The notes below the pieces were generated by a model. That model was not told the origin of the DNA. It ran no database searches and worked only from the letters and a program-made list of their open reading frames with translations. 64,000 nucleotides of DNA from Escherichia coli (GTDB lineage Bacteria > Pseudomonadota > Gammaproteobacteria > Enterobacterales > Enterobacteriaceae): assembly GCF_003334765.1 (NCBI RefSeq), contig NZ_QOWT01000022.1; one strand, given 5' to 3'. The first letter of the stretch is position 1; each line of letters begins with the position of its first letter. The position numbers and the translations under genes were made by a program. Shown in pieces: positions 659-7,581 of this stretch.

Positions 659-1465
659 ATGAGTGTTATGAATCCAATAAGTTCTAATATATTTAATGCT
701 GAATTTTTAAACACCCCGGCAGCGGCACTTGCCGCATGGATTTCCATTATTGGAGCTGTTATAACTTTGGTGACGATAGTTATAAGAGCACTATTCAAAT
801 ATAGAAAATCTCATGATGTAATTTTGAAAAAATCAGGAATACCTGCGTTTATATTGAATTTTTTTCTTATACGAATATCATTAAAAAGGCTGCCTACTAT
901 CACATGGGCTGAAAAATCAATCACGGTTCTCTTTTCACTTCTTTTTTTGTGTGCAATTTATATTTTTGGTCCAGTTTTCATCCAAGCCATTAGAACCCCA
1001 CCAAATAGCACATTGCTTTATTGGATAAAATCCGGTGAATCATTTTATATGTCAAAAAAACTGGCGACTGCAGCTACAATATTAACCACTCCTGATTGGG
1101 AAATATCAAAGGATGATTGCGAAGAGTCATCCTCTGCCAGTACAGAGAAGTACAAATCATTAACTATCGAACATAAAGAAATTCTTTGTAAACTACTAAC
1201 CACTGATGAAGGGAATGCTTACATTGATGAAGAAGTCAAGAATTTCGTTAAAGACAAATTCTTTATCTATTCCTTTGCCCCAACAACCATATTTATTCTA
1301 TTATGGATTTCTTTGGGTTTTATACTGACCATTCACTATTCTAAAAAAGTTAGGAAATATATTCTGACTGAACAAAAAAATGCAATTCATTGGGCATATG
1401 GTGAATTCAAGACAGAAGGAATCTATTCAATATATCAAGAGTTAGAACGTAAGACTCACCATTAA
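659..1465 (+). CDS. Hypothetical polytopic membrane protein (268 aa), AT-rich cargo gene between S and V
   Basis: ORF with GGTGG Shine-Dalgarno 6 nt upstream; several hydrophobic helices; AT-rich; opposite strand to flanking tail genes. Confidence 0.5.
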   Translation: MSVMNPISSNIFNAEFLNTPAAALAAWISIIGAVITLVTIVIRALFKYRKSHDVILKKSGIPAFILNFFLIRISLKRLPTITWAEKSITVLFSLLFLCAIYIFGPVFIQAIRTPPNSTLLYWIKSGESFYMSKKLATAATILTTPDWEISKDDCEESSSASTEKYKSLTIEHKEILCKLLTTDEGNAYIDEEVKNFVKDKFFIYSFAPTTIFILLWISLGFILTIHYSKKVRKYILTEQKNAIHWAYGEFKTEGIYSIYQELERKTHH

Positions 1466-1853: not shown

Positions 1854-2304
1854 GTTTCACCGTCCACATTTCTTCAGGTTCATCGGGTTCTGCTACCGCT
1901 TCAACGCTCGACACACTGCCGTCAGTGCTGACCAGCACACGTTCCGTCAGTTGCAGGTTAAGGCTGATATCACAGACATCGTTGCGCAGAATATCCACCT
2001 CAAAGGTAAATAGTTTTTCCCGTAACGCCGGGTTATTGATGGCATCGGGCTGGTTATCCCGCAGCCACAGCAAAACCGGGGCCATCAGCAGATTCTGGTC
2101 GCCGCTGAAATCCTCAATCACCACGTTCAGGGTGTAACCACGCAGCCCTACGAGTTCACTAAAGGCAGTATCTTTCACCTGATGGAGCCGGACCTGAACC
2201 AGGAAATTTACGGCCTGCCGGAATATCTGTCCGCCATTCCGTCCGCCTTGCTGAACGAGTCCGCTACGCTGTTCCGGCGTAAATACTACATCAATGGCAG
2301 TCAT
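1846..2304 (-). CDS. Phage tail completion protein R-like; N-terminal portion probably not native (antisense to portal-derived sequence)
   Basis: 152-aa ORF; its stop overlaps the S start by 8 nt; its first ~40 codons overlap the portal fragment on the other strand. Confidence 0.5.
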   Translation of the reverse strand: MTAIDVVFTPEQRSGLVQQGGRNGGQIFRQAVNFLVQVRLHQVKDTAFSELVGLRGYTLNVVIEDFSGDQNLLMAPVLLWLRDNQPDAINNPALREKLFTFEVDILRNDVCDISLNLQLTERVLVSTDGSVSSVEAVAEPDEPEEMWTVKRG

Positions 2305-2712
2305 GCAGGGTTCATCATGTATATGACCGACGCCGCGCAGAACCAGGAGGACGTGAACAACATCCGCCAGGCCATGAAAAGCGCTAAAGGACCGGGCAAC
2401 TTCCGCAACCTGTTTATGTATTCACCCAACGGCAAAAAGGACGGGATTCAGATAATCCCGCTGTCAGAGGTAGCGGCAAAGGATGAGTTTCTGAACATTA
2501 AGAACGTGAGCCGAGACGACATGATGGCTGCACACCGCGTTCCGCCGCAGATGATGGGGATTATGCCGAGTAATGTTGGGGGATTTGGGGATGTGGAAAA
2601 GGCGAGTAAGGTGTTTGTCCGTAACGAATTGATACCGCTGCAAAAGCGAATTAAAGAAATTAATGAATGGTTGAGTGATGAAATAATTTCTTTCCAACCA
2701 TATGAATTATAA
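2182..2712 (+). pseudogene. Phage portal protein (gpQ-like) C-terminal fragment; 5' boundary uncertain
   Basis: Translation contains RRKYYINGSHAGF and MMAAHRVPPQMMGIMPSNVGGFGDVEKASKVFVRNELIPLQ, which I recognise as portal C-terminal sequence; far too short for a complete portal. Confidence 0.6.
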
Positions 2713-2733
2713 TAAAGTAGGGCAAATAATGCC

Positions 2734-3591
2734 CTACTTTAACCAAATATTATAATCCAATCTTCCTACGTATCTTGAAAAAACAGCCAGAGCAATTGCT
2801 TGCCCTACACTTGTTAATTCAATTCCTTGATAGTTGCTCTTTGAAAATTTTTCTAAAAATGCAGACACATGAGGGGCAACTAACTTAAGATTTGAAATAT
2901 ATGCACTCTTATCTTTTATATCAGTCGGATATTTACTCATAAAATAGTCTTCAACATCCATCCCTAAAAAAGTATTCCATGAACAAGCCCCTGCATATTG
3001 AATGTGATATATCTGGGCTTGAGACAAATTAAACCCATTAGTATACATTGATTCAAAGTTTCTAAAATTGTGCTCCAACAAATCCAATCGAACACCATTA
3101 ACAGGGTCTTTGATCTCAACATTCTTGAGAAGAAAAACTATCGTTATAAGTGATATTTGTTGCTGTGTTAACTTGGGAACGACGGTAACTGCCTCCGTTA
3201 AAACTATATCTCTAAAATCGTCATTGTTATTGGAGACTCGTTCAACTAACAACTGAGAAAGCACATCCATATTAGCTTTCTTTCCCTTCCTGGCTGATGA
3301 CTTTAATGCCTCAGTCAATGTAGCCTGAACGTCCGGATCGCAAAATTTATCAATAATCAATCTATCAACGTTTTTTGTTAAATCCGAAACGACACGCTCT
3401 TCAAAATCTTTTGCATTCTCTTGAGCTGCAGCATAAGCAACATCTTTCAATTTTGGAAACTGATTTTCGAAGAGAATGTTGAATAGTTCTCTAACCTCGG
3501 AAAACGACATCCCTGAAACATTTACATTATTTCCAGCTTGAATTGCATACGAATTATTACCTATTTGTTGCTTTTGCTTATCACTAAACAT
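2734..3591 (-). CDS. Hypothetical protein (285 aa), AT-rich cargo; second gene of a two-gene module
   Basis: Start is preceded by GGAGGA directly after the stop of the upstream small membrane protein gene; no family recognised. Confidence 0.6.
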   Translation of the reverse strand: MFSDKQKQQIGNNSYAIQAGNNVNVSGMSFSEVRELFNILFENQFPKLKDVAYAAAQENAKDFEERVVSDLTKNVDRLIIDKFCDPDVQATLTEALKSSARKGKKANMDVLSQLLVERVSNNNDDFRDIVLTEAVTVVPKLTQQQISLITIVFLLKNVEIKDPVNGVRLDLLEHNFRNFESMYTNGFNLSQAQIYHIQYAGACSWNTFLGMDVEDYFMSKYPTDIKDKSAYISNLKLVAPHVSAFLEKFSKSNYQGIELTSVGQAIALAVFSRYVGRLDYNIWLK

Positions 3592-3600
3592 ATATCCTCC

Positions 3601-3846
3601 TTATTTTTTATCACCTGTATTTATACAATCAATTTTAATATCACCTCTAGCCTGGACAGCAGTTGAATTATCACCAACTGATTGGCTCATAGAATTATAT
3701 TTATTTTTTGTAGTGATAAGTAATCCAGCTAAAGCGCTAACTGCAGCCAAAAATGCAACAATAGAATCAAAACCAGGATCCATATAAAGCCATAATCCTG
3801 CAATCGATGCCAGCATACATGTAATGACTATTGCAAAAATTTTCAT
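3601..3846 (-). CDS. Small membrane protein (81 aa, two predicted TM helices); first gene of the two-gene cargo module
   Basis: ORF with AGGAG upstream; hydrophobic N-terminal two-thirds, polar C-terminal tail. Confidence 0.55.
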   Translation of the reverse strand: MKIFAIVITCMLASIAGLWLYMDPGFDSIVAFLAAVSALAGLLITTKNKYNSMSQSVGDNSTAVQARGDIKIDCINTGDKK

Positions 3847-3914
3847 AAATTCTCCTTCTAATGGAAGTGGTTATACCGAAAACAATTTCCTTTTACAACC
3901 ACGCACAGCGCGCG

Positions 3915-3940
3915 CTCGTATCCCCGCCACGCCTGCCCGC
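3915..3940 (-). other. Candidate cohesive-end (cos)-like sequence of the P2/186 type
   Basis: Minus strand reads GGCAGGCGTGGCGGGGATA; the GGCGTGGCGGGGA core matches the 186/P2 cos overhang as I recall it, and it sits in a GC-rich island between AT-rich cargo. Confidence 0.3.
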
Positions 3941-3983
3941 TTTGTGTAGTGGTTTTCATGCACCTGCATGACATAAGTAAAAG

Positions 3984-4001
3984 CCCGCCAGAACTGGCGG
4001 G
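3984..4001 (-). terminator. Hairpin plus T-run on the minus strand (possible relic phage terminator beside cos)
   Basis: cccgcca-gaac-tggcggg stem-loop followed on the minus strand by CTTTTACTT. Confidence 0.35.
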
Positions 4002-4151
4002 ACTGAGCAAAAACGATCCTTTTGCGATCATTCATTTTCATGCGCTATAGTCATGCAACAAACGCATACGAACCATATGGTTAGATTACTCATCAAGTCA
4101 GATGGATTTTCAGGCAGATTGCCACAGCAATTGTAAAGGAGCGAGATTGAA

Positions 4152-5153
4152 ATGGGTGGAGAGACTTCGGCTATACAACGAGTCGCGGGTAAGATTTCTG
4201 ATGATATTTTCTCAGTGTTCAAATGGGATCGTGCCGCTAGAGCGGACATGAATTGGGATTGTTGCCAAGAGGCTCATTCCAAGAAAACACATCCAAGCGA
4301 TGTTGTATTTTTCTACATAGATCCATATGAGGAGGAAATGGTCTATCTCAACACAGACCTCAAAAGCTATGCAGAAGGTACTATTGGGAAAAAAATAGTC
4401 GAGGGAGCTTTAACATCGCTTGCTTTAGCTACCGAGTGTGCAAATGTCAGTGAAGAATGGCGATTGAAATATGTTCATGATGATTCTTTAGGTTATAACG
4501 TAAGAGGGTTATTATTCTTATATAACCATGATAATTTATATGATAAAGACTTCTATGAGAATATTACAAAAAAATTAGATCACTCATCTATAAATTGCCC
4601 TCCAAACATCAAACTACATTTGCTTGACCCTTATAAAATATCAGATTTGATAAACATATCTTCTGACATAACTAAGTTAATTGGTTCAGGCAAACTTCCT
4701 CAACCTGATAAGTTCACATATTATTATCCAGATCTTTCCCTAACAAGAATAAAGCACCCTATTAATCAGACAACACCTGCAACAATTGAATTATTAACAT
4801 CACCATACATTATAATAAAGCATGAGGCTTTCAGTTGGCTCAGGGATAAAAACCCTGAGGGATATGTTGTTTATTACAATCAACCGGGGGATTCAGTAGA
4901 CGAATTCGTTTACTTCTTTGATATGTTATCAACTTATCAGATATTAACCGAAGGTAAACCAATCGTATTACGCCATTGTCACATTCACCCAAATGAAAAT
5001 GCCATTCATCATTTTGAAAGAGCGAAAAAGAAATACAGCACAGACTGGCTCTTAGGCGAGGATGAAAGACTTTTTCTTAAAATTGACTTCGACAAGACAG
5101 ACAAAATTGTTGTTGAATATAATCTTGAACAAATCGGCATGGAGCAACGATAA
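4152..5153 (+). CDS. Hypothetical protein (333 aa), gene 1 of a three-gene cargo cassette; possible PD-(D/E)xK-like motif
   Basis: AGGAG upstream; AT-rich; FFYIDPYEEEMVYLNTDLK resembles a hhhD...(D/E)xK nuclease core; no Walker A. Confidence 0.7.
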   Translation: MGGETSAIQRVAGKISDDIFSVFKWDRAARADMNWDCCQEAHSKKTHPSDVVFFYIDPYEEEMVYLNTDLKSYAEGTIGKKIVEGALTSLALATECANVSEEWRLKYVHDDSLGYNVRGLLFLYNHDNLYDKDFYENITKKLDHSSINCPPNIKLHLLDPYKISDLINISSDITKLIGSGKLPQPDKFTYYYPDLSLTRIKHPINQTTPATIELLTSPYIIIKHEAFSWLRDKNPEGYVVYYNQPGDSVDEFVYFFDMLSTYQILTEGKPIVLRHCHIHPNENAIHHFERAKKKYSTDWLLGEDERLFLKIDFDKTDKIVVEYNLEQIGMEQR

Positions 5154-6232
5154 TGGCTAAAAAACTATATTTCGCAACTGATAAAAATATTTATGATGCA
5201 TTACATCATAAAAGGATAACCGCTGCAAAGTTGCATGAATTATTGTTGAATCGAGGTGTGTTTTTATCACCAGAACTCGACAAGGAAATACTAATCGAGG
5301 AAATATCCAAACTTCCTCACGGATTTAATGAATTAGAACACATAAAAAAACTGGTCAAAACATATGACCCAAGGGAAAGCACTACTAGTGTGAGCTTCCA
5401 AACCTCAACAAATCAGGCCGAATTAAAAAGTGCTGCTGAAGCACTAAAAAAAACATGCTCCCCTAGTAAAGGTCAAAGCCTGAATATTGTAGCTAAAAAA
5501 GATGGCTCGCTTACAGTAGAATACAAATATGAAGAAATAGACCTGTCTAAAACTGCATTACGTCAGATCGACAAGCGGAATGTTATAATAGAACTTCGCC
5601 CTGGAGCTGACAAAGTTGAAGTACGTATGCCTCAAAACCCCGAGGCAAAAAAAGTTATTGAGAGCTTGCAAAACGAGCTATCTAAAATCAAGTCCGAACC
5701 TATCGAGCGCTTCGAAATATCATTACTAGCAATAACTGATCCTACATTGCGAAGTCAGTTTTTTCAGGAATTAATGAATGGTCTACGCGGTTATGAGACT
5801 GATGACGTAACAAAAGTCGAATTAAATCGCAGTACTGATGCTAGTGAGGATGAAGACAAGGAAGAAACTATTGATACCGGATTTGTTAAGAAAGCCGTCC
5901 TTAATGGTGAAGGGGTAAATAGTTCAGCTATATTTTCTCAACTACATGAGAAAGGTTATTATATCGGGCGTATTGCATGGTCTTCAAAGCCGACAAGTGG
6001 AATTGGAGACAGAATCAACGTCGAAGCATTTTTCAAAGACTCAGAAAAATGCTGTGACTTTGCCTATCAAATTAAAGGTATAAACAATCAAAAAGAAGAC
6101 GGTTTCAATGTAACCATTCGCGCGGCAACGGCACAAGAGAAAAAACATATTAGTGAATTAATTGAGTCCGCCGCTGAAAATGCCTATAATATAATAATAG
6201 GATCAGAGGTGAACGAAGATGAAAAAGGTTAA
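5153..6232 (+). CDS. Hypothetical protein (359 aa), gene 2 of the three-gene cassette
   Basis: ATG overlaps the gene 1 stop (TAATG at 5151-5155); GGAG 8 nt upstream; acidic patch SEDEDKEE; no recognisable family. Confidence 0.7.
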   Translation: MAKKLYFATDKNIYDALHHKRITAAKLHELLLNRGVFLSPELDKEILIEEISKLPHGFNELEHIKKLVKTYDPRESTTSVSFQTSTNQAELKSAAEALKKTCSPSKGQSLNIVAKKDGSLTVEYKYEEIDLSKTALRQIDKRNVIIELRPGADKVEVRMPQNPEAKKVIESLQNELSKIKSEPIERFEISLLAITDPTLRSQFFQELMNGLRGYETDDVTKVELNRSTDASEDEDKEETIDTGFVKKAVLNGEGVNSSAIFSQLHEKGYYIGRIAWSSKPTSGIGDRINVEAFFKDSEKCCDFAYQIKGINNQKEDGFNVTIRAATAQEKKHISELIESAAENAYNIIIGSEVNEDEKG

Positions 6233-6902
6233 ATGGCTTAAGTTAAACATACGGCTTGAGTTTGAAACAGCCGTTAGACGTCTTTCTCTTGATTCTTTTA
6301 CAGAGGATAAAGGGAAAGGGTTCATTTTTGATAAAATACGCCATGATTTTGCAAATGGTCGCTTTGTCGAGCGTATTGTTTATCATGATAAAATATTAAG
6401 CTTTGACGGAAGCGAAACTACCGTTGAAAGAATCGAATATCGCACCACAAATTTTAGCGTGGCTTTAGACTCTCTTCCTGTAATGCAGATTACTAACCCA
6501 CCCAGAACTTTAAAGCCTTTTTCGCAGGCTTTGGTAAAAAATCTTGGCTTAGGTGTTAGTTTGGAAGAAATTGACATAAACCCTATAGACTGGCTTAATG
6601 AAATATCTTCAAGTGTAAATATCAATTTAACACAACTTGATATTTCAAGGGTTAGAGTTTCTGATTACGCCACAGCTAAAATGCAAATAATTGGCAGCAA
6701 TGATCTTAGGAAGTATTATAAAGAAGAATTAGAGGGTAAAAAAATAAGAATTGACAGGCTTGTTTGCTCTGTTAATTCATTAGAATATTCCGGTAAGCTC
6801 AAGATCACCAATAGCGGCCTTGCTTATATTGATGTTAGAAATGAGAATGAGTTTACGAAAATCGTTTTTGATACGTTAAAAAAAGTCACCCTTCAATCAT
6901 AG
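6219..6902 (+). CDS. Hypothetical protein (227 aa), gene 3 of the three-gene cassette
   Basis: Start lies 14 nt inside the end of gene 2 (translational coupling); GAGGTG upstream; no recognisable family. Confidence 0.65.
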   Translation: MKKVKWLKLNIRLEFETAVRRLSLDSFTEDKGKGFIFDKIRHDFANGRFVERIVYHDKILSFDGSETTVERIEYRTTNFSVALDSLPVMQITNPPRTLKPFSQALVKNLGLGVSLEEIDINPIDWLNEISSSVNINLTQLDISRVRVSDYATAKMQIIGSNDLRKYYKEELEGKKIRIDRLVCSVNSLEYSGKLKITNSGLAYIDVRNENEFTKIVFDTLKKVTLQS

Positions 6903-6958
6903 ATGGCTTATAAGGAGTTACTTCACCTAACGCCTCGCCTTACTCGTTGTTCAACCTC

Positions 6959-6989
6959 GTAGGCGTCAGAATCAAGTTCTGACGCCTAC
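6959..6989. terminator. Perfect 13-bp inverted repeat hairpin between the cassette and the convergent DinI-like gene
   Basis: gtaggcgtcagaa-tcaag-ttctgacgcctac; no strong T-run on either side, so function as a terminator is uncertain. Confidence 0.35.
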
Positions 6990-6997
6990 AATGTTTC

Positions 6998-7231
6998 TTA
7001 ATGCAGCCAGCTATCGTCCTCCCAGACCTGCTGCATTATTTCCATCACTCGCTTTTTGTCTTCATCCAGTTTTAACCCGCTCAGCTCAACGCCATTGGCG
7101 CTGCCCTTACGGATACGAATTGCTGTTTTGGGATACAGAGGGCGCAAATTACGGTAAAGCTCGGATTCAAGGGCGTCCAGGGTAGACTGGCTAATCTTCT
7201 GCTCTTTATCGATCATTATTTCAATGCGCAT
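6998..7231 (-). CDS. DinI-like protein (77 aa from the MRIEIM start), resembling the C-terminal part of a 186 Tum-type module
   Basis: MRIEIMIDKEQKISQSTLDALESELYRNLRPLYPKTAIRI...VWEDDSWLH resembles DinI; the track ORF (7303 start) is probably over-extended. Confidence 0.6.
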   Translation of the reverse strand: MRIEIMIDKEQKISQSTLDALESELYRNLRPLYPKTAIRIRKGSANGVELSGLKLDEDKKRVMEIMQQVWEDDSWLH

Positions 7232-7241
7232 AAAAGCCACC

Positions 7242-7430
7242 TCAGCTGATGACATCCATTGAGCGGTTGTATTCGTGGGTTCTGATTTTTGCCATGAGTT
7301 CATCTGTCAGTTCAGAAACCCACTGCAGAGCCAGCCCCTTCTCTTCATCACTACACTCACTAGCCGCTACAAGCTTAAGAAAAAAATCAATGCGCTGGAG
7401 CTTCAAAGACTCCAAAAAATAGTCCTGCAT
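7242..7430 (-). CDS. Small protein (62 aa), first gene after the LexA-controlled promoter; possible Tum-like antirepressor part
   Basis: AGGAGG 4 nt upstream of the ATG; directly downstream of the LexA box; different frame and overlapping the DinI-like ORF. Confidence 0.4.
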   Translation of the reverse strand: MQDYFLESLKLQRIDFFLKLVAASECSDEEKGLALQWVSELTDELMAKIRTHEYNRSMDVIS

Positions 7431-7471
7431 CTTTCCTCCTATGACACCAAAGCAACACTGTATACATAACC

Positions 7472-7489
7472 ACTGTTTGTATTTACAGT
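7472..7489 (-). promoter_or_regulatory. LexA operator (SOS box) overlapping the -10 of a strong promoter for the Tum/DinI-like genes
   Basis: aCTGT-ttgtattt-ACAGta, a perfect CTGT-N8-ACAG; on the minus strand TTTACA (-35) and TATACT (-10) flank it. Confidence 0.7.
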
Positions 7490-7581
7490 ATATAATAATA
7501 TTACTGATGTAAAACGTTTTTTACGTTCATCAGCCTGATATGCCTGGTATTATTAAGAGCACGAATTGTTAACCTGCGTAA

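Follow-up and report, generated by a model that had tools for sequence, protein, structure and literature searches.

A P2-family cos site between two cargo slots in a terminase-deleted prophage of Escherichia coli

The segment 3908–4058 of the window (the whole 64-kb stretch of Escherichia coli DNA that was analyzed) is, judging from its sequence, the cos site of a phage that belongs to the P2 family (Peduoviridae) and is of the Fels-2/186-like kind. The three-gene cassette and the two-gene module on its two sides are best read as exchangeable cargo occupying two slots. This explanation as a whole, which covers the identity of cos, the cargo slots, a putative terminator hairpin and the orphaned state of the site, is held with high confidence. 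Both the cos site and its cargo-flanked arrangement are already known and well documented.

Prophage layout and identity of the cos site

The first 15 kb of the window represent a P2-like E. coli prophage, which is reversed with respect to the standard P2 map. On the minus strand it carries the tail genes R and S (1407–2304), a dinI/tum-like gene (6998–7231; phrog_189, E = 3e-31), the gene for gpA (7582–9996) and that for a Dam methylase (9993–10910). The dinI annotation matches the RefSeq annotation of a 100%-identical prophage from E. coli H3, and in the early/SOS operon no further backbone gene lies between dinI and the three-gene cassette. The initial annotation had arranged the elements in the order cassette, cos, two-gene module and portal gene. 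This order was confirmed, except that the "portal gene" is only its 3′ half (2131–2712, plus strand; ORF 2182–2712), which encodes the C-terminal half of the protein (phrog_68, E = 9e-101, profile positions 164–338 of 344); the portal protein of an intact relative has 343 aa.

The homologue of the cohesive end, i.e., the cosN overhang, is the 19-nt sequence GGCGTGGCGGGGATACGAG at 3915–3933 of the minus strand, where the site reads ...AAAGCGGGCA GGCGTGGCGGGGATACGAG CGCGCGC.... The string GGCAGGCGTGGCGGGGATA, quoted from the sequence in the initial annotation, is present on the minus strand (3936→3918). Its core GGCGTGGCGGGGA, which the initial annotation matched to the 186/P2 cohesive ends, agrees with the public records in 13 of 13 positions for 186 and in 12 of 13 for P2. 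According to these records, cos is GGCGTGGCGGGGAAAGCAT in phage 186 and GGCGAGGCGGGGAAAGCAC in P2. Over the full length, GGCGTGGCGGGGATACGAG is identical to the 186 overhang in 15 of 19 positions, the first 13 included, and to the P2 and P4 overhangs in 14 of 19 positions each. The stretch 3915–3933(−) also conforms to GGCG(A/T)GGCGGGGA..., the pattern of the 19-nt GC-rich cohesive end of the P2 family.

The closest counterpart is SEN8, a P2-like phage of Salmonella, for which a 19-nt cos sequence has been published (PMC5427200). This sequence, ggcgtggcggggatacgag, is identical to the 19-mer of the window in 19 of 19 positions. It should be noted that it was found by annotation and labelled "putative". 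The SEN8 record begins with the 19-mer, and its final base is the equivalent of window position 3934, i.e., the predicted cut.

One could object that the match to the P2/186 overhang is a chance resemblance between GC-rich sequences, and indeed, with two mismatches allowed, the 13-mer was found at three sites in the window, no more than in shuffled sequences. However, the exact 13-mer GGCGTGGCGGGGA has a single copy in the 64-kb window (3921–3933, minus strand), against a chance expectation of about 0.002 for both strands. Furthermore, 66-nt query cores of 186, P2 and P4, each consisting of 40 nt to the left of the overhang, the 19-nt overhang and 7 nt to the right, were slid along both strands. 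All three scored best at 3973→3908(−), with 51 (186), 48 (P2) and 48 (P4) ungapped matches of 66, whereas the next-best score anywhere in the window was 33–34 (z = 8.6–9.6). The region, in other words, aligns significantly with the cos regions of P2 and 186. The site also lies between gpA/dinI and the portal gene, in the same order as in P2 and 186, and the 151-bp module around it (see below) is kept in more than 100 phage contigs. The probability that the resemblance is fortuitous is thus vanishingly small.

A cos core of 55 bp is described as common to P2 and P4 (Ziermann and Calendar 1990, via PMC9594776 and PMC5694545). In a four-way alignment of the window with the circularized ends of 186, P2 and P4, this published core coincides with the stretch shared by P2 and P4 and ends at +7. 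The alignment revealed a common anatomy which, in the orientation of the P2 map, follows the order of three GCATG repeats, a hairpin, the palindrome TCATGCAnnTGCATGA, AAAGCGGGCR, the overhang and YGCGCGC.

With respect to the known systems, the site is nearest to those of the SEN8/Fels-2-like phages (Felsduovirus, Peduoviridae): apart from the identical 19-nt cos, the left arm is 84% identical to that of SEN8, and the gene order (dam, gpA, dinI, cargo, cos, cargo, portal) is the same. SEN8 differs in its cargo, which encodes an HNH endonuclease and a hypothetical protein in the portal-side slot and a DNA-binding protein in the dinI-side slot, and it is a complete, virion-forming phage, whereas the prophage of the window has no terminase. 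Phages 186, P2 and P4 share with the window the 19-nt length of the overhang, the YGCGCGC motif, the GCATG repeats, the proximal palindrome and the position between gpA and portal. They differ at the last six positions of the overhang (ATACGAG in the window, AAAGCAT or AAAGCAC in 186/P2/P4), and the clade of the window adds a T-run to the hairpin as well as a conserved GATC pair.

The cos site of phage lambda follows the same logic, with a partly two-fold-symmetric nick site and an adjacent repeat arm for the small terminase subunit, but shows no sequence similarity to the site described here and has a 12-nt overhang instead of a 19-nt one. Unlike in lambda, the recognition arm of the window cos, with its presumed repeat binding, is located on the future right end of the mature genome.

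The conserved 151-bp module and its hairpin

The extent of the site was established from a sample of at least 120 IMG/VR viral contigs containing the exact 19-mer, of which 114 unique sequences were used for column conservation. Conservation remained at a background of 0.3–0.45 beyond position −125, was high through the overhang and the following 7 nt, and then returned to background. This delimits a whole conserved cos module of 151 bp (3908–4058, minus strand), with limits at −125 and +26. The minimal functional cos probably comprises about 125 bp. BLAST against phage genomes retrieved only P2-like phages of Klebsiella, Yersinia, Escherichia and Salmonella, and the shared stretch was always about 3908–4057. 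The GC-rich island reported in the initial annotation was found here as well, with a GC content of 0.53 at 3900–4049 versus 0.29–0.41 in the flanks.

On the portal side, the module ends with the 7 nt CGCGCGC (3908–3914, minus strand), which are kept in 102 of about 118 contigs with a sufficient right flank and correspond to YGCGCGC common to 186, P2 and P4. Conservation ends after +7, and 102 distinct right flanks follow CGCGCGC among the contigs. The sharp boundary at +7 was also considered as evidence of a cargo exchange starting at the cos ends, and this was rejected because any homologous recombination gives the same edge. Directly 5′ of the overhang is the left nick half-site GCGGGCA^ (3934–3940, minus strand), which is at least 90% conserved among the 114 unique sequences and has the equivalents GTGGGCA in 186 and GCGGGCG in P2 and P4. 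The 7-nt stretches flanking the overhang mirror each other on opposite strands (GCGGGCA^ and GCGCGCG^, the latter being the complement of the right-side motif). Such mirrored half-sites are the pattern expected of two cosN nick sites, which makes these positions the predicted nicks in the clade.

Other elements of the module are candidates for terminase binding. The 16-bp palindrome TCATGCAggTGCATGA (3956–3971) consists of two inverted GCATG motifs; its arms show at least 90% conservation around a variable central dinucleotide (GG, CC, TG or GC), and it is partly kept in 186, P4 and P2. The small terminase subunit may bind to three direct GCATG repeats at distances of 10 and 13 nt from each other (4029–4056, minus strand). 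They are at least 90% conserved in the relatives and present in 186, P2 and P4; in the window, the third repeat is degenerate (GAATG). Four exact copies of GCATG were counted in the module, compared with about 0.3 expected per 5-mer on both strands of 151 bp. The left arm of cos also contains a pair of GATC (Dam) sites, GATCgcaaaagGATC (4015–4029), both at least 90% conserved around a variable spacer. An Rfam search of 2500–7400 at E ≤ 1 returned only the chance-level matches mir-290 and ZEB2_AS1_3 and no known RNA family. A promoter-like sequence in the cos arm (TTGCGA-18-TATAGT) was rejected, being no commoner than in shuffles and having a −35 element absent from the clade consensus.

The conservation of about 150 bp could alternatively be explained by a small encoded protein, since ORFs of 56–57 aa span the region (3871–4041 and 3858–4031, both on the minus strand) and "hypothetical proteins" (QBP08048.1 and XAF37142.1) are annotated there in the records of Klebsiella and Yersinia phages. 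The pattern of variation, however, has no codon periodicity (0.103, 0.102 and 0.109 for the first, second and third positions), and of the 114 unique sequences no more than 66 keep one frame open and 17 the other. Moreover, the ORF would enter the hypervariable flank and be split in the linear virion genome. A coding origin of the conservation is very improbable, and the small "hypothetical protein" ORFs annotated over cos in several public phage records are spurious.

A hairpin followed by a T-run had been noticed on the minus strand in the initial annotation, and both features are present at 3974–4001: the stem-loop CCCGCCA-GTTC-TGGCGGG (4001→3984), with a 7-bp stem including 6 G-C pairs and a 4-nt loop, precedes the T-run CTTTTACTTA (3974–3983). 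A stem-loop with a T-rich tract is the form of a rho-independent terminator on this strand. When 56 nt around the hairpin were folded and compared with shuffles, the energy was not exceptional (z = −1.4), so the hairpin is supported by its conservation in the relatives and not by its energy. In contigs with this type of cos, 54 unique sequences have a stem of at least 6 bp, and in 45 of these the 8 nt after the stem contain four or more T. The stem variants are mostly transitions which preserve G:U pairing, as would be expected of an RNA hairpin. The description of the terminator as a "relic" did not hold, as the hairpin lies within the conserved 151-bp module of nearly all relatives, whatever their cargo.

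It seems somewhat probable, on these grounds, that the hairpin is an intrinsic terminator closing the A-to-dinI unit before cos. Where a relative carries no dinI-side cargo, about 206 nt separate the end of dinI from the overhang, and the hairpin is downstream of this gene. In the window, the oppositely oriented three-gene cassette separates the hairpin from dinI, which lies 3 kb away and has a 13-bp-stem hairpin of its own at 6959–6989. The terminator would consequently have little to terminate here, and its local role may be small. A hairpin at the same position and without a T-run occurs in 186 (CGCCAGagCTGGCG) and P4 (CCGCGCC/GGCGCGG), 186-type contigs likewise having the shorter palindrome and no T-run, while in P2 it is weak or absent and most P2-type contigs have none, which fits a function other than termination or no essential role.

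A possible but clearly less favored alternative is that the hairpin, with its CCAG-N4-CTGG core, acts at the DNA level as a cos accessory, i.e., a palindromic site for binding or bending. By analogy with the IHF site of lambda cosB, such an element would have the distal GCATG repeats on one side and the proximal palindrome on the other. A GC-rich palindrome at an equal distance from the nick in 186 and P4, in both cases without a T-run, agrees with this alternative, as does the retention of the hairpin whatever gene lies upstream, with no co-oriented gene directly upstream of it in the window. On the other hand, the P2 terminase packages both P2, which has no hairpin, and P4, which has one; the hairpin is therefore dispensable for recognition by this terminase. 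In addition, the extension of the stem in the clade, the TTTT following 45 of 54 stems of at least 6 bp and the predominance of changes that keep G:U pairs speak for the terminator.

Cargo on both sides of cos

An insertion of cargo to either side of cos had been proposed in the initial annotation, and this was borne out by the variation of the gaps and by named relatives. The gaps were measured in the 120 contigs sharing the 19-mer. Between cos and the stop codon of the portal gene, 6 of 91 contigs have only 163–187 bp, whereas the other 85 have 277–4245 bp; the window has 1202 bp. Between the stop codon of dinI and cos, 19 of 80 contigs have a gap of about 206 bp and the rest one of up to 4199 bp, with 3064 bp in the window. 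The median cos-to-portal gap for this type of cos (ATACGAG) is 1536 bp, the short backbone form being found in 6/91 contigs, versus 177 bp for the 186 type (short form in 73/100) and 172 bp for the P2 type (88/97). Thus, about 170 bp of conserved backbone usually separate cos from portal in P2 and 186, and portal-side cargo is carried by most members of this clade (93%) and by a minority of the P2 and 186 types (9–27%).

The gene order A, dinI, [cargo], cos, [cargo], portal is identical in intact relatives, and only the contents of the slots vary. In Yersinia phage MLG42, which has no cargo on the dinI side, dinI leads directly into the cos arm. Klebsiella phage ST437-OXA245phi4.1 has the same cos and three-gene cassette as the window, with a SinR-like gene on the portal side. 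E. coli CH10508 has in common with the window all of the DNA to the right of a breakpoint at position 3909, cos and cassette included, and carries a different gene on the portal side. A TIR-domain gene occupies the portal-side slot of phage 500465-1, and SEN8 has cargo on both sides of cos.

The boundaries between backbone and cargo could be placed in the window as well. On the dinI side, the inserted DNA extends over about 4059–6926, and the backbone motif GGTTGAACAACGAG...GAGGCGTTAG ends at 6927. On the portal side, it extends over about 2673–3907; here, the homology to other portal genes ends 40–85 nt before the stop codon, and the GC content falls to 0.33.

The dinI-side cargo (4152–6902, plus strand) consists of three adjacent genes in the same orientation (4152–5153, 5153–6232 and 6219–6902), whose products correspond over the full length to PADLOC Hp1 (1–333/333, E = 1e-239), Hp2 (1–359/359, E = 3e-248) and Hp3 (1–227/227, E = 2e-157). 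We take this cassette to be the defense system named Rst_3HP. A three-gene, domain-less system of the P2 hotspot is described as protecting against P1 (Rousset et al. 2022), and the cassette is taken here to be this anti-P1 system.

The portal-side cargo (2734–3846, minus strand; NCBIfam NF045477, E = 3e-72; phrog_19542 and phrog_27656) comprises genes for a 285-aa protein of the LPO_1073/Vpar_1526 family and an 81-aa protein, which looks hydrophobic and membrane-like. No match to either protein was found in PADLOC, Pfam or PDB, and a literature search on the family name of the 285-aa LPO_1073-family protein was uninformative. In the relatives, other genes stand in for these two.

Variable genes at this place have been described before. 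The cos-proximal region between gpA and gpQ is a hotspot of anti-phage systems according to an analysis of 18,150 E. coli loci (Rousset et al. 2022), which is extended by a 2026 preprint. A cos-flanking hotspot was described earlier by Dodd and Egan (1996, via later papers), the gap between cosL and Q has been named a hotspot (PMC5694545), and retron Ec67 is reported between cos and a DNA-packaging gene of a Dam-encoding 186-related prophage. Like those of the gpA-gpQ hotspot (Rousset et al. 2022; Dodd and Egan 1996; Nakayama 1999), the genes considered here are variable accessory genes beside cos, with no essential difference in arrangement, and the dinI-side cassette is taken to be the validated three-gene system of this hotspot. 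Variable content between conserved gpA and gpQ was likewise observed in our 120 contigs, with gaps of 0.16–4.2 kb on the portal side and 0.2–4.2 kb on the dinI side. In the accessible text of the hotspot literature (Rousset et al. 2022 and the 2026 preprint), a split into two slots by a 151-bp cos island was not found.

Terminase deletion and proposed working of the site

An intact version of the element is present on pZ1322HEC0001-3. Positions 1–2138 and 2131–8000 of the window match sites that are 7,058 bp apart on it, and the deletion junction (2131–2138) is an imperfect 8-bp repeat, GGTGTAAC/GGTCTAAC. In the window, this deletion has cost the prophage the start of R, the genes lysC, lysB, X and L and those for lysozyme, holin, the small terminase subunit (M), capsid (N), scaffold (O) and the large terminase subunit (P), together with codons 1–150 of portal. 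The cognate terminase genes (gpM and gpP homologues) are accordingly absent from the element in the window and present on pZ1322HEC0001-3. As both terminase subunits were taken by the deletion, cos is intact but orphaned. This 7.06-kb deletion had been missed in the initial annotation. It should be noted that the loss of the terminase bears on the present usability of cos and not on the identity of the site.

Given that the terminase, capsid and lysis genes and half of portal are gone, and that the third GCATG repeat reads GAATG, cos could be regarded as a decayed, non-functional relic of a dead prophage, with its likeness to 186 due to ancestry only. We consider this unlikely. Over 12.9 kb, the prophage and the intact element on pZ1322HEC0001-3 differ at just 3 positions, all of which lie outside cos; GAATG is shared with this intact element and with Klebsiella phage ST437-OXA245phi4.1; and the 19-mer and both half-sites are those of the clade consensus. 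For these reasons, the deletion looks recent and cos undecayed, i.e., the prophage is a recent terminase-deletion derivative.

We suggest the following scheme for the working of the site. In the intact phage, terminase (the gpM and gpP homologues) would recognize the arm of about 125 bp on the gpA/dinI side, with its three GCATG direct repeats and, closer to the cut, the palindrome TCATGCAnnTGCATGA. It would then nick the strands 19 nt apart, beside GCGGGCA^ and GCGCGCG^, leaving the 5′ ends GGCGTGGCGGGGATACGAG, and the portal side would need to supply no more than 7 nt. The hairpin with its T-run probably stops transcription of the early/SOS operon (A to dinI) before cos. All DNA outside the 151-bp island would be dispensable, so that both flanks could serve as slots for exchangeable cargo. 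The orphaned cos of the window would be cleavable solely by a related helper phage acting in trans.

The GATC pair of the left arm was found in 112 of 117 contigs with this type of cos, versus 17 of 118 of the 186 type and 2 of 119 of the P2 type, and a phage Dam gene beside gpA in 36 of 54 versus 0 of 57 and 0 of 44, respectively. By analogy with pac of P1, cos packaging might be sensitive to adenine methylation, with the phage Dam timing or licensing the cleavage. It should be noted that this is a single association at the level of the clade and that the hosts possess their own Dam. We give this reading little credence, and only slightly more when it is considered jointly with the separate one of a helper-mobilized prophage.

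The cos site and the backbone/cargo boundaries of the prophage are now fixed, which is mainly a gain in annotation. The comparative figures, namely the 151-bp island, the 7 nt on the portal side and the frequency of portal-side cargo (93% vs. 9–27%), add detail and leave the general picture unchanged. The two-gene module on the portal side is the only open biological lead; this slot usually holds anti-phage genes. If mobilization by a helper is true, the orphaned cos together with int, gpA and the defense cargo would let a terminase-less prophage hitch-hike in the manner of P4.

Late-gene deletion, and a possible accessory gene between S and V

Compared with the near-identical intact element in the E. 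coli plasmid record NZ_CP148585.1, the prophage lacks 7,058 bp. The deletion junction lies at window 2131-2138 (region affected, 1-2712), and the deletion is flanked by an imperfect 8-bp repeat, GGTGTAAC/GGTCTAAC. Both terminase subunits and the capsid, scaffold and lysis genes were lost; R is missing its start, and the portal gene its first 150 codons. The same prophage was found in E. coli H3 with a different, smaller deletion, which extends from the C-terminus of gpM to lysC.

Between the tail genes S and V, and on the strand opposite to them, lies a gene for a 268-aa protein (window 659-1465 (+)). The product is assigned to the DUF6216 family in RefSeq and looks hydrophobic and membrane-like; no match was found in PHROG, PADLOC or NCBIfam. 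The S-V interval looks like a further accessory-gene slot within the late operon.

Edges of the cargo on the two sides of cos

The portal-side cargo slot (window 2734-3846 (-)) is occupied by an uncharacterised, AT-rich two-gene module (GC about 0.33), which encodes a 285-aa protein of the LPO_1073/Vpar_1526 family and an 81-aa hydrophobic, membrane-like protein. PADLOC, Pfam and PDB gave no match for this module, and its position in the cargo slot makes it a candidate anti-phage or exclusion module. Nucleotide homology with other P2-like portal genes stops 40-85 nt upstream of the portal stop codon (window 2628-2733), where GC falls to 0.33. The boundary of cargo exchange therefore falls within the portal gene, in its 3′ end. 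The portal gene and the gene for the 285-aa protein converge, with a hairpin, AGTAGGGCA-aataa-TGCCCTACT (window 2719-2741), between them.

On the other side of cos, a hairpin with a 13-bp stem is located downstream of dinI (window 6959-6989 (-)), and after it comes a backbone motif, GGTTGAACAACGAG...GAGGCGTTAG (window 6927-6956 (-)), that 186, Yersinia MLG42 and E. coli phage 500465-1 also carry. The insertion with the three-gene 3HP defence cassette has its dinI-side edge at this motif.

Small ORFs, GATC sites and Dam methylase

Small ORFs run across cos in the window (3858-4041 (-)) and in phage records of Klebsiella (L005, 6003-6152) and Yersinia (L006, 1153-1296), and public phage entries list such ORFs under the label 'hypothetical protein' (QBP08048.1, XAF37142.1). 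Since the comparative test gave no coding signal in them, they are probably mis-annotations.

A promoter-like TTGCGA-18-TATAGT (window 4022-4051 (+)) in the left arm of cos is directed at the 3HP cassette. Its -35 element arises from the spacer variant GATCGCAAAAGGATC and not from the clade consensus, and promoter-like sites in the region are no more numerous than in shuffles.

The recognition arm of cos contains two conserved GATC sites separated by a variable spacer (window 4015-4029). The pair is present in 112 of the 117 contigs with the cos type of the window, versus 17/118 of the 186 type and 2/119 of the P2 type. A Dam methylase gene (window 9993-10910 (-)) adjoins gpA in 36/54 cases of this cos type, versus 0/57 (186 type) and 0/44 (P2 type). 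The GATC pair and the Dam gene may hint at methylation-sensitive packaging, with P1 pac as a parallel, but they amount to a single clade-level association.
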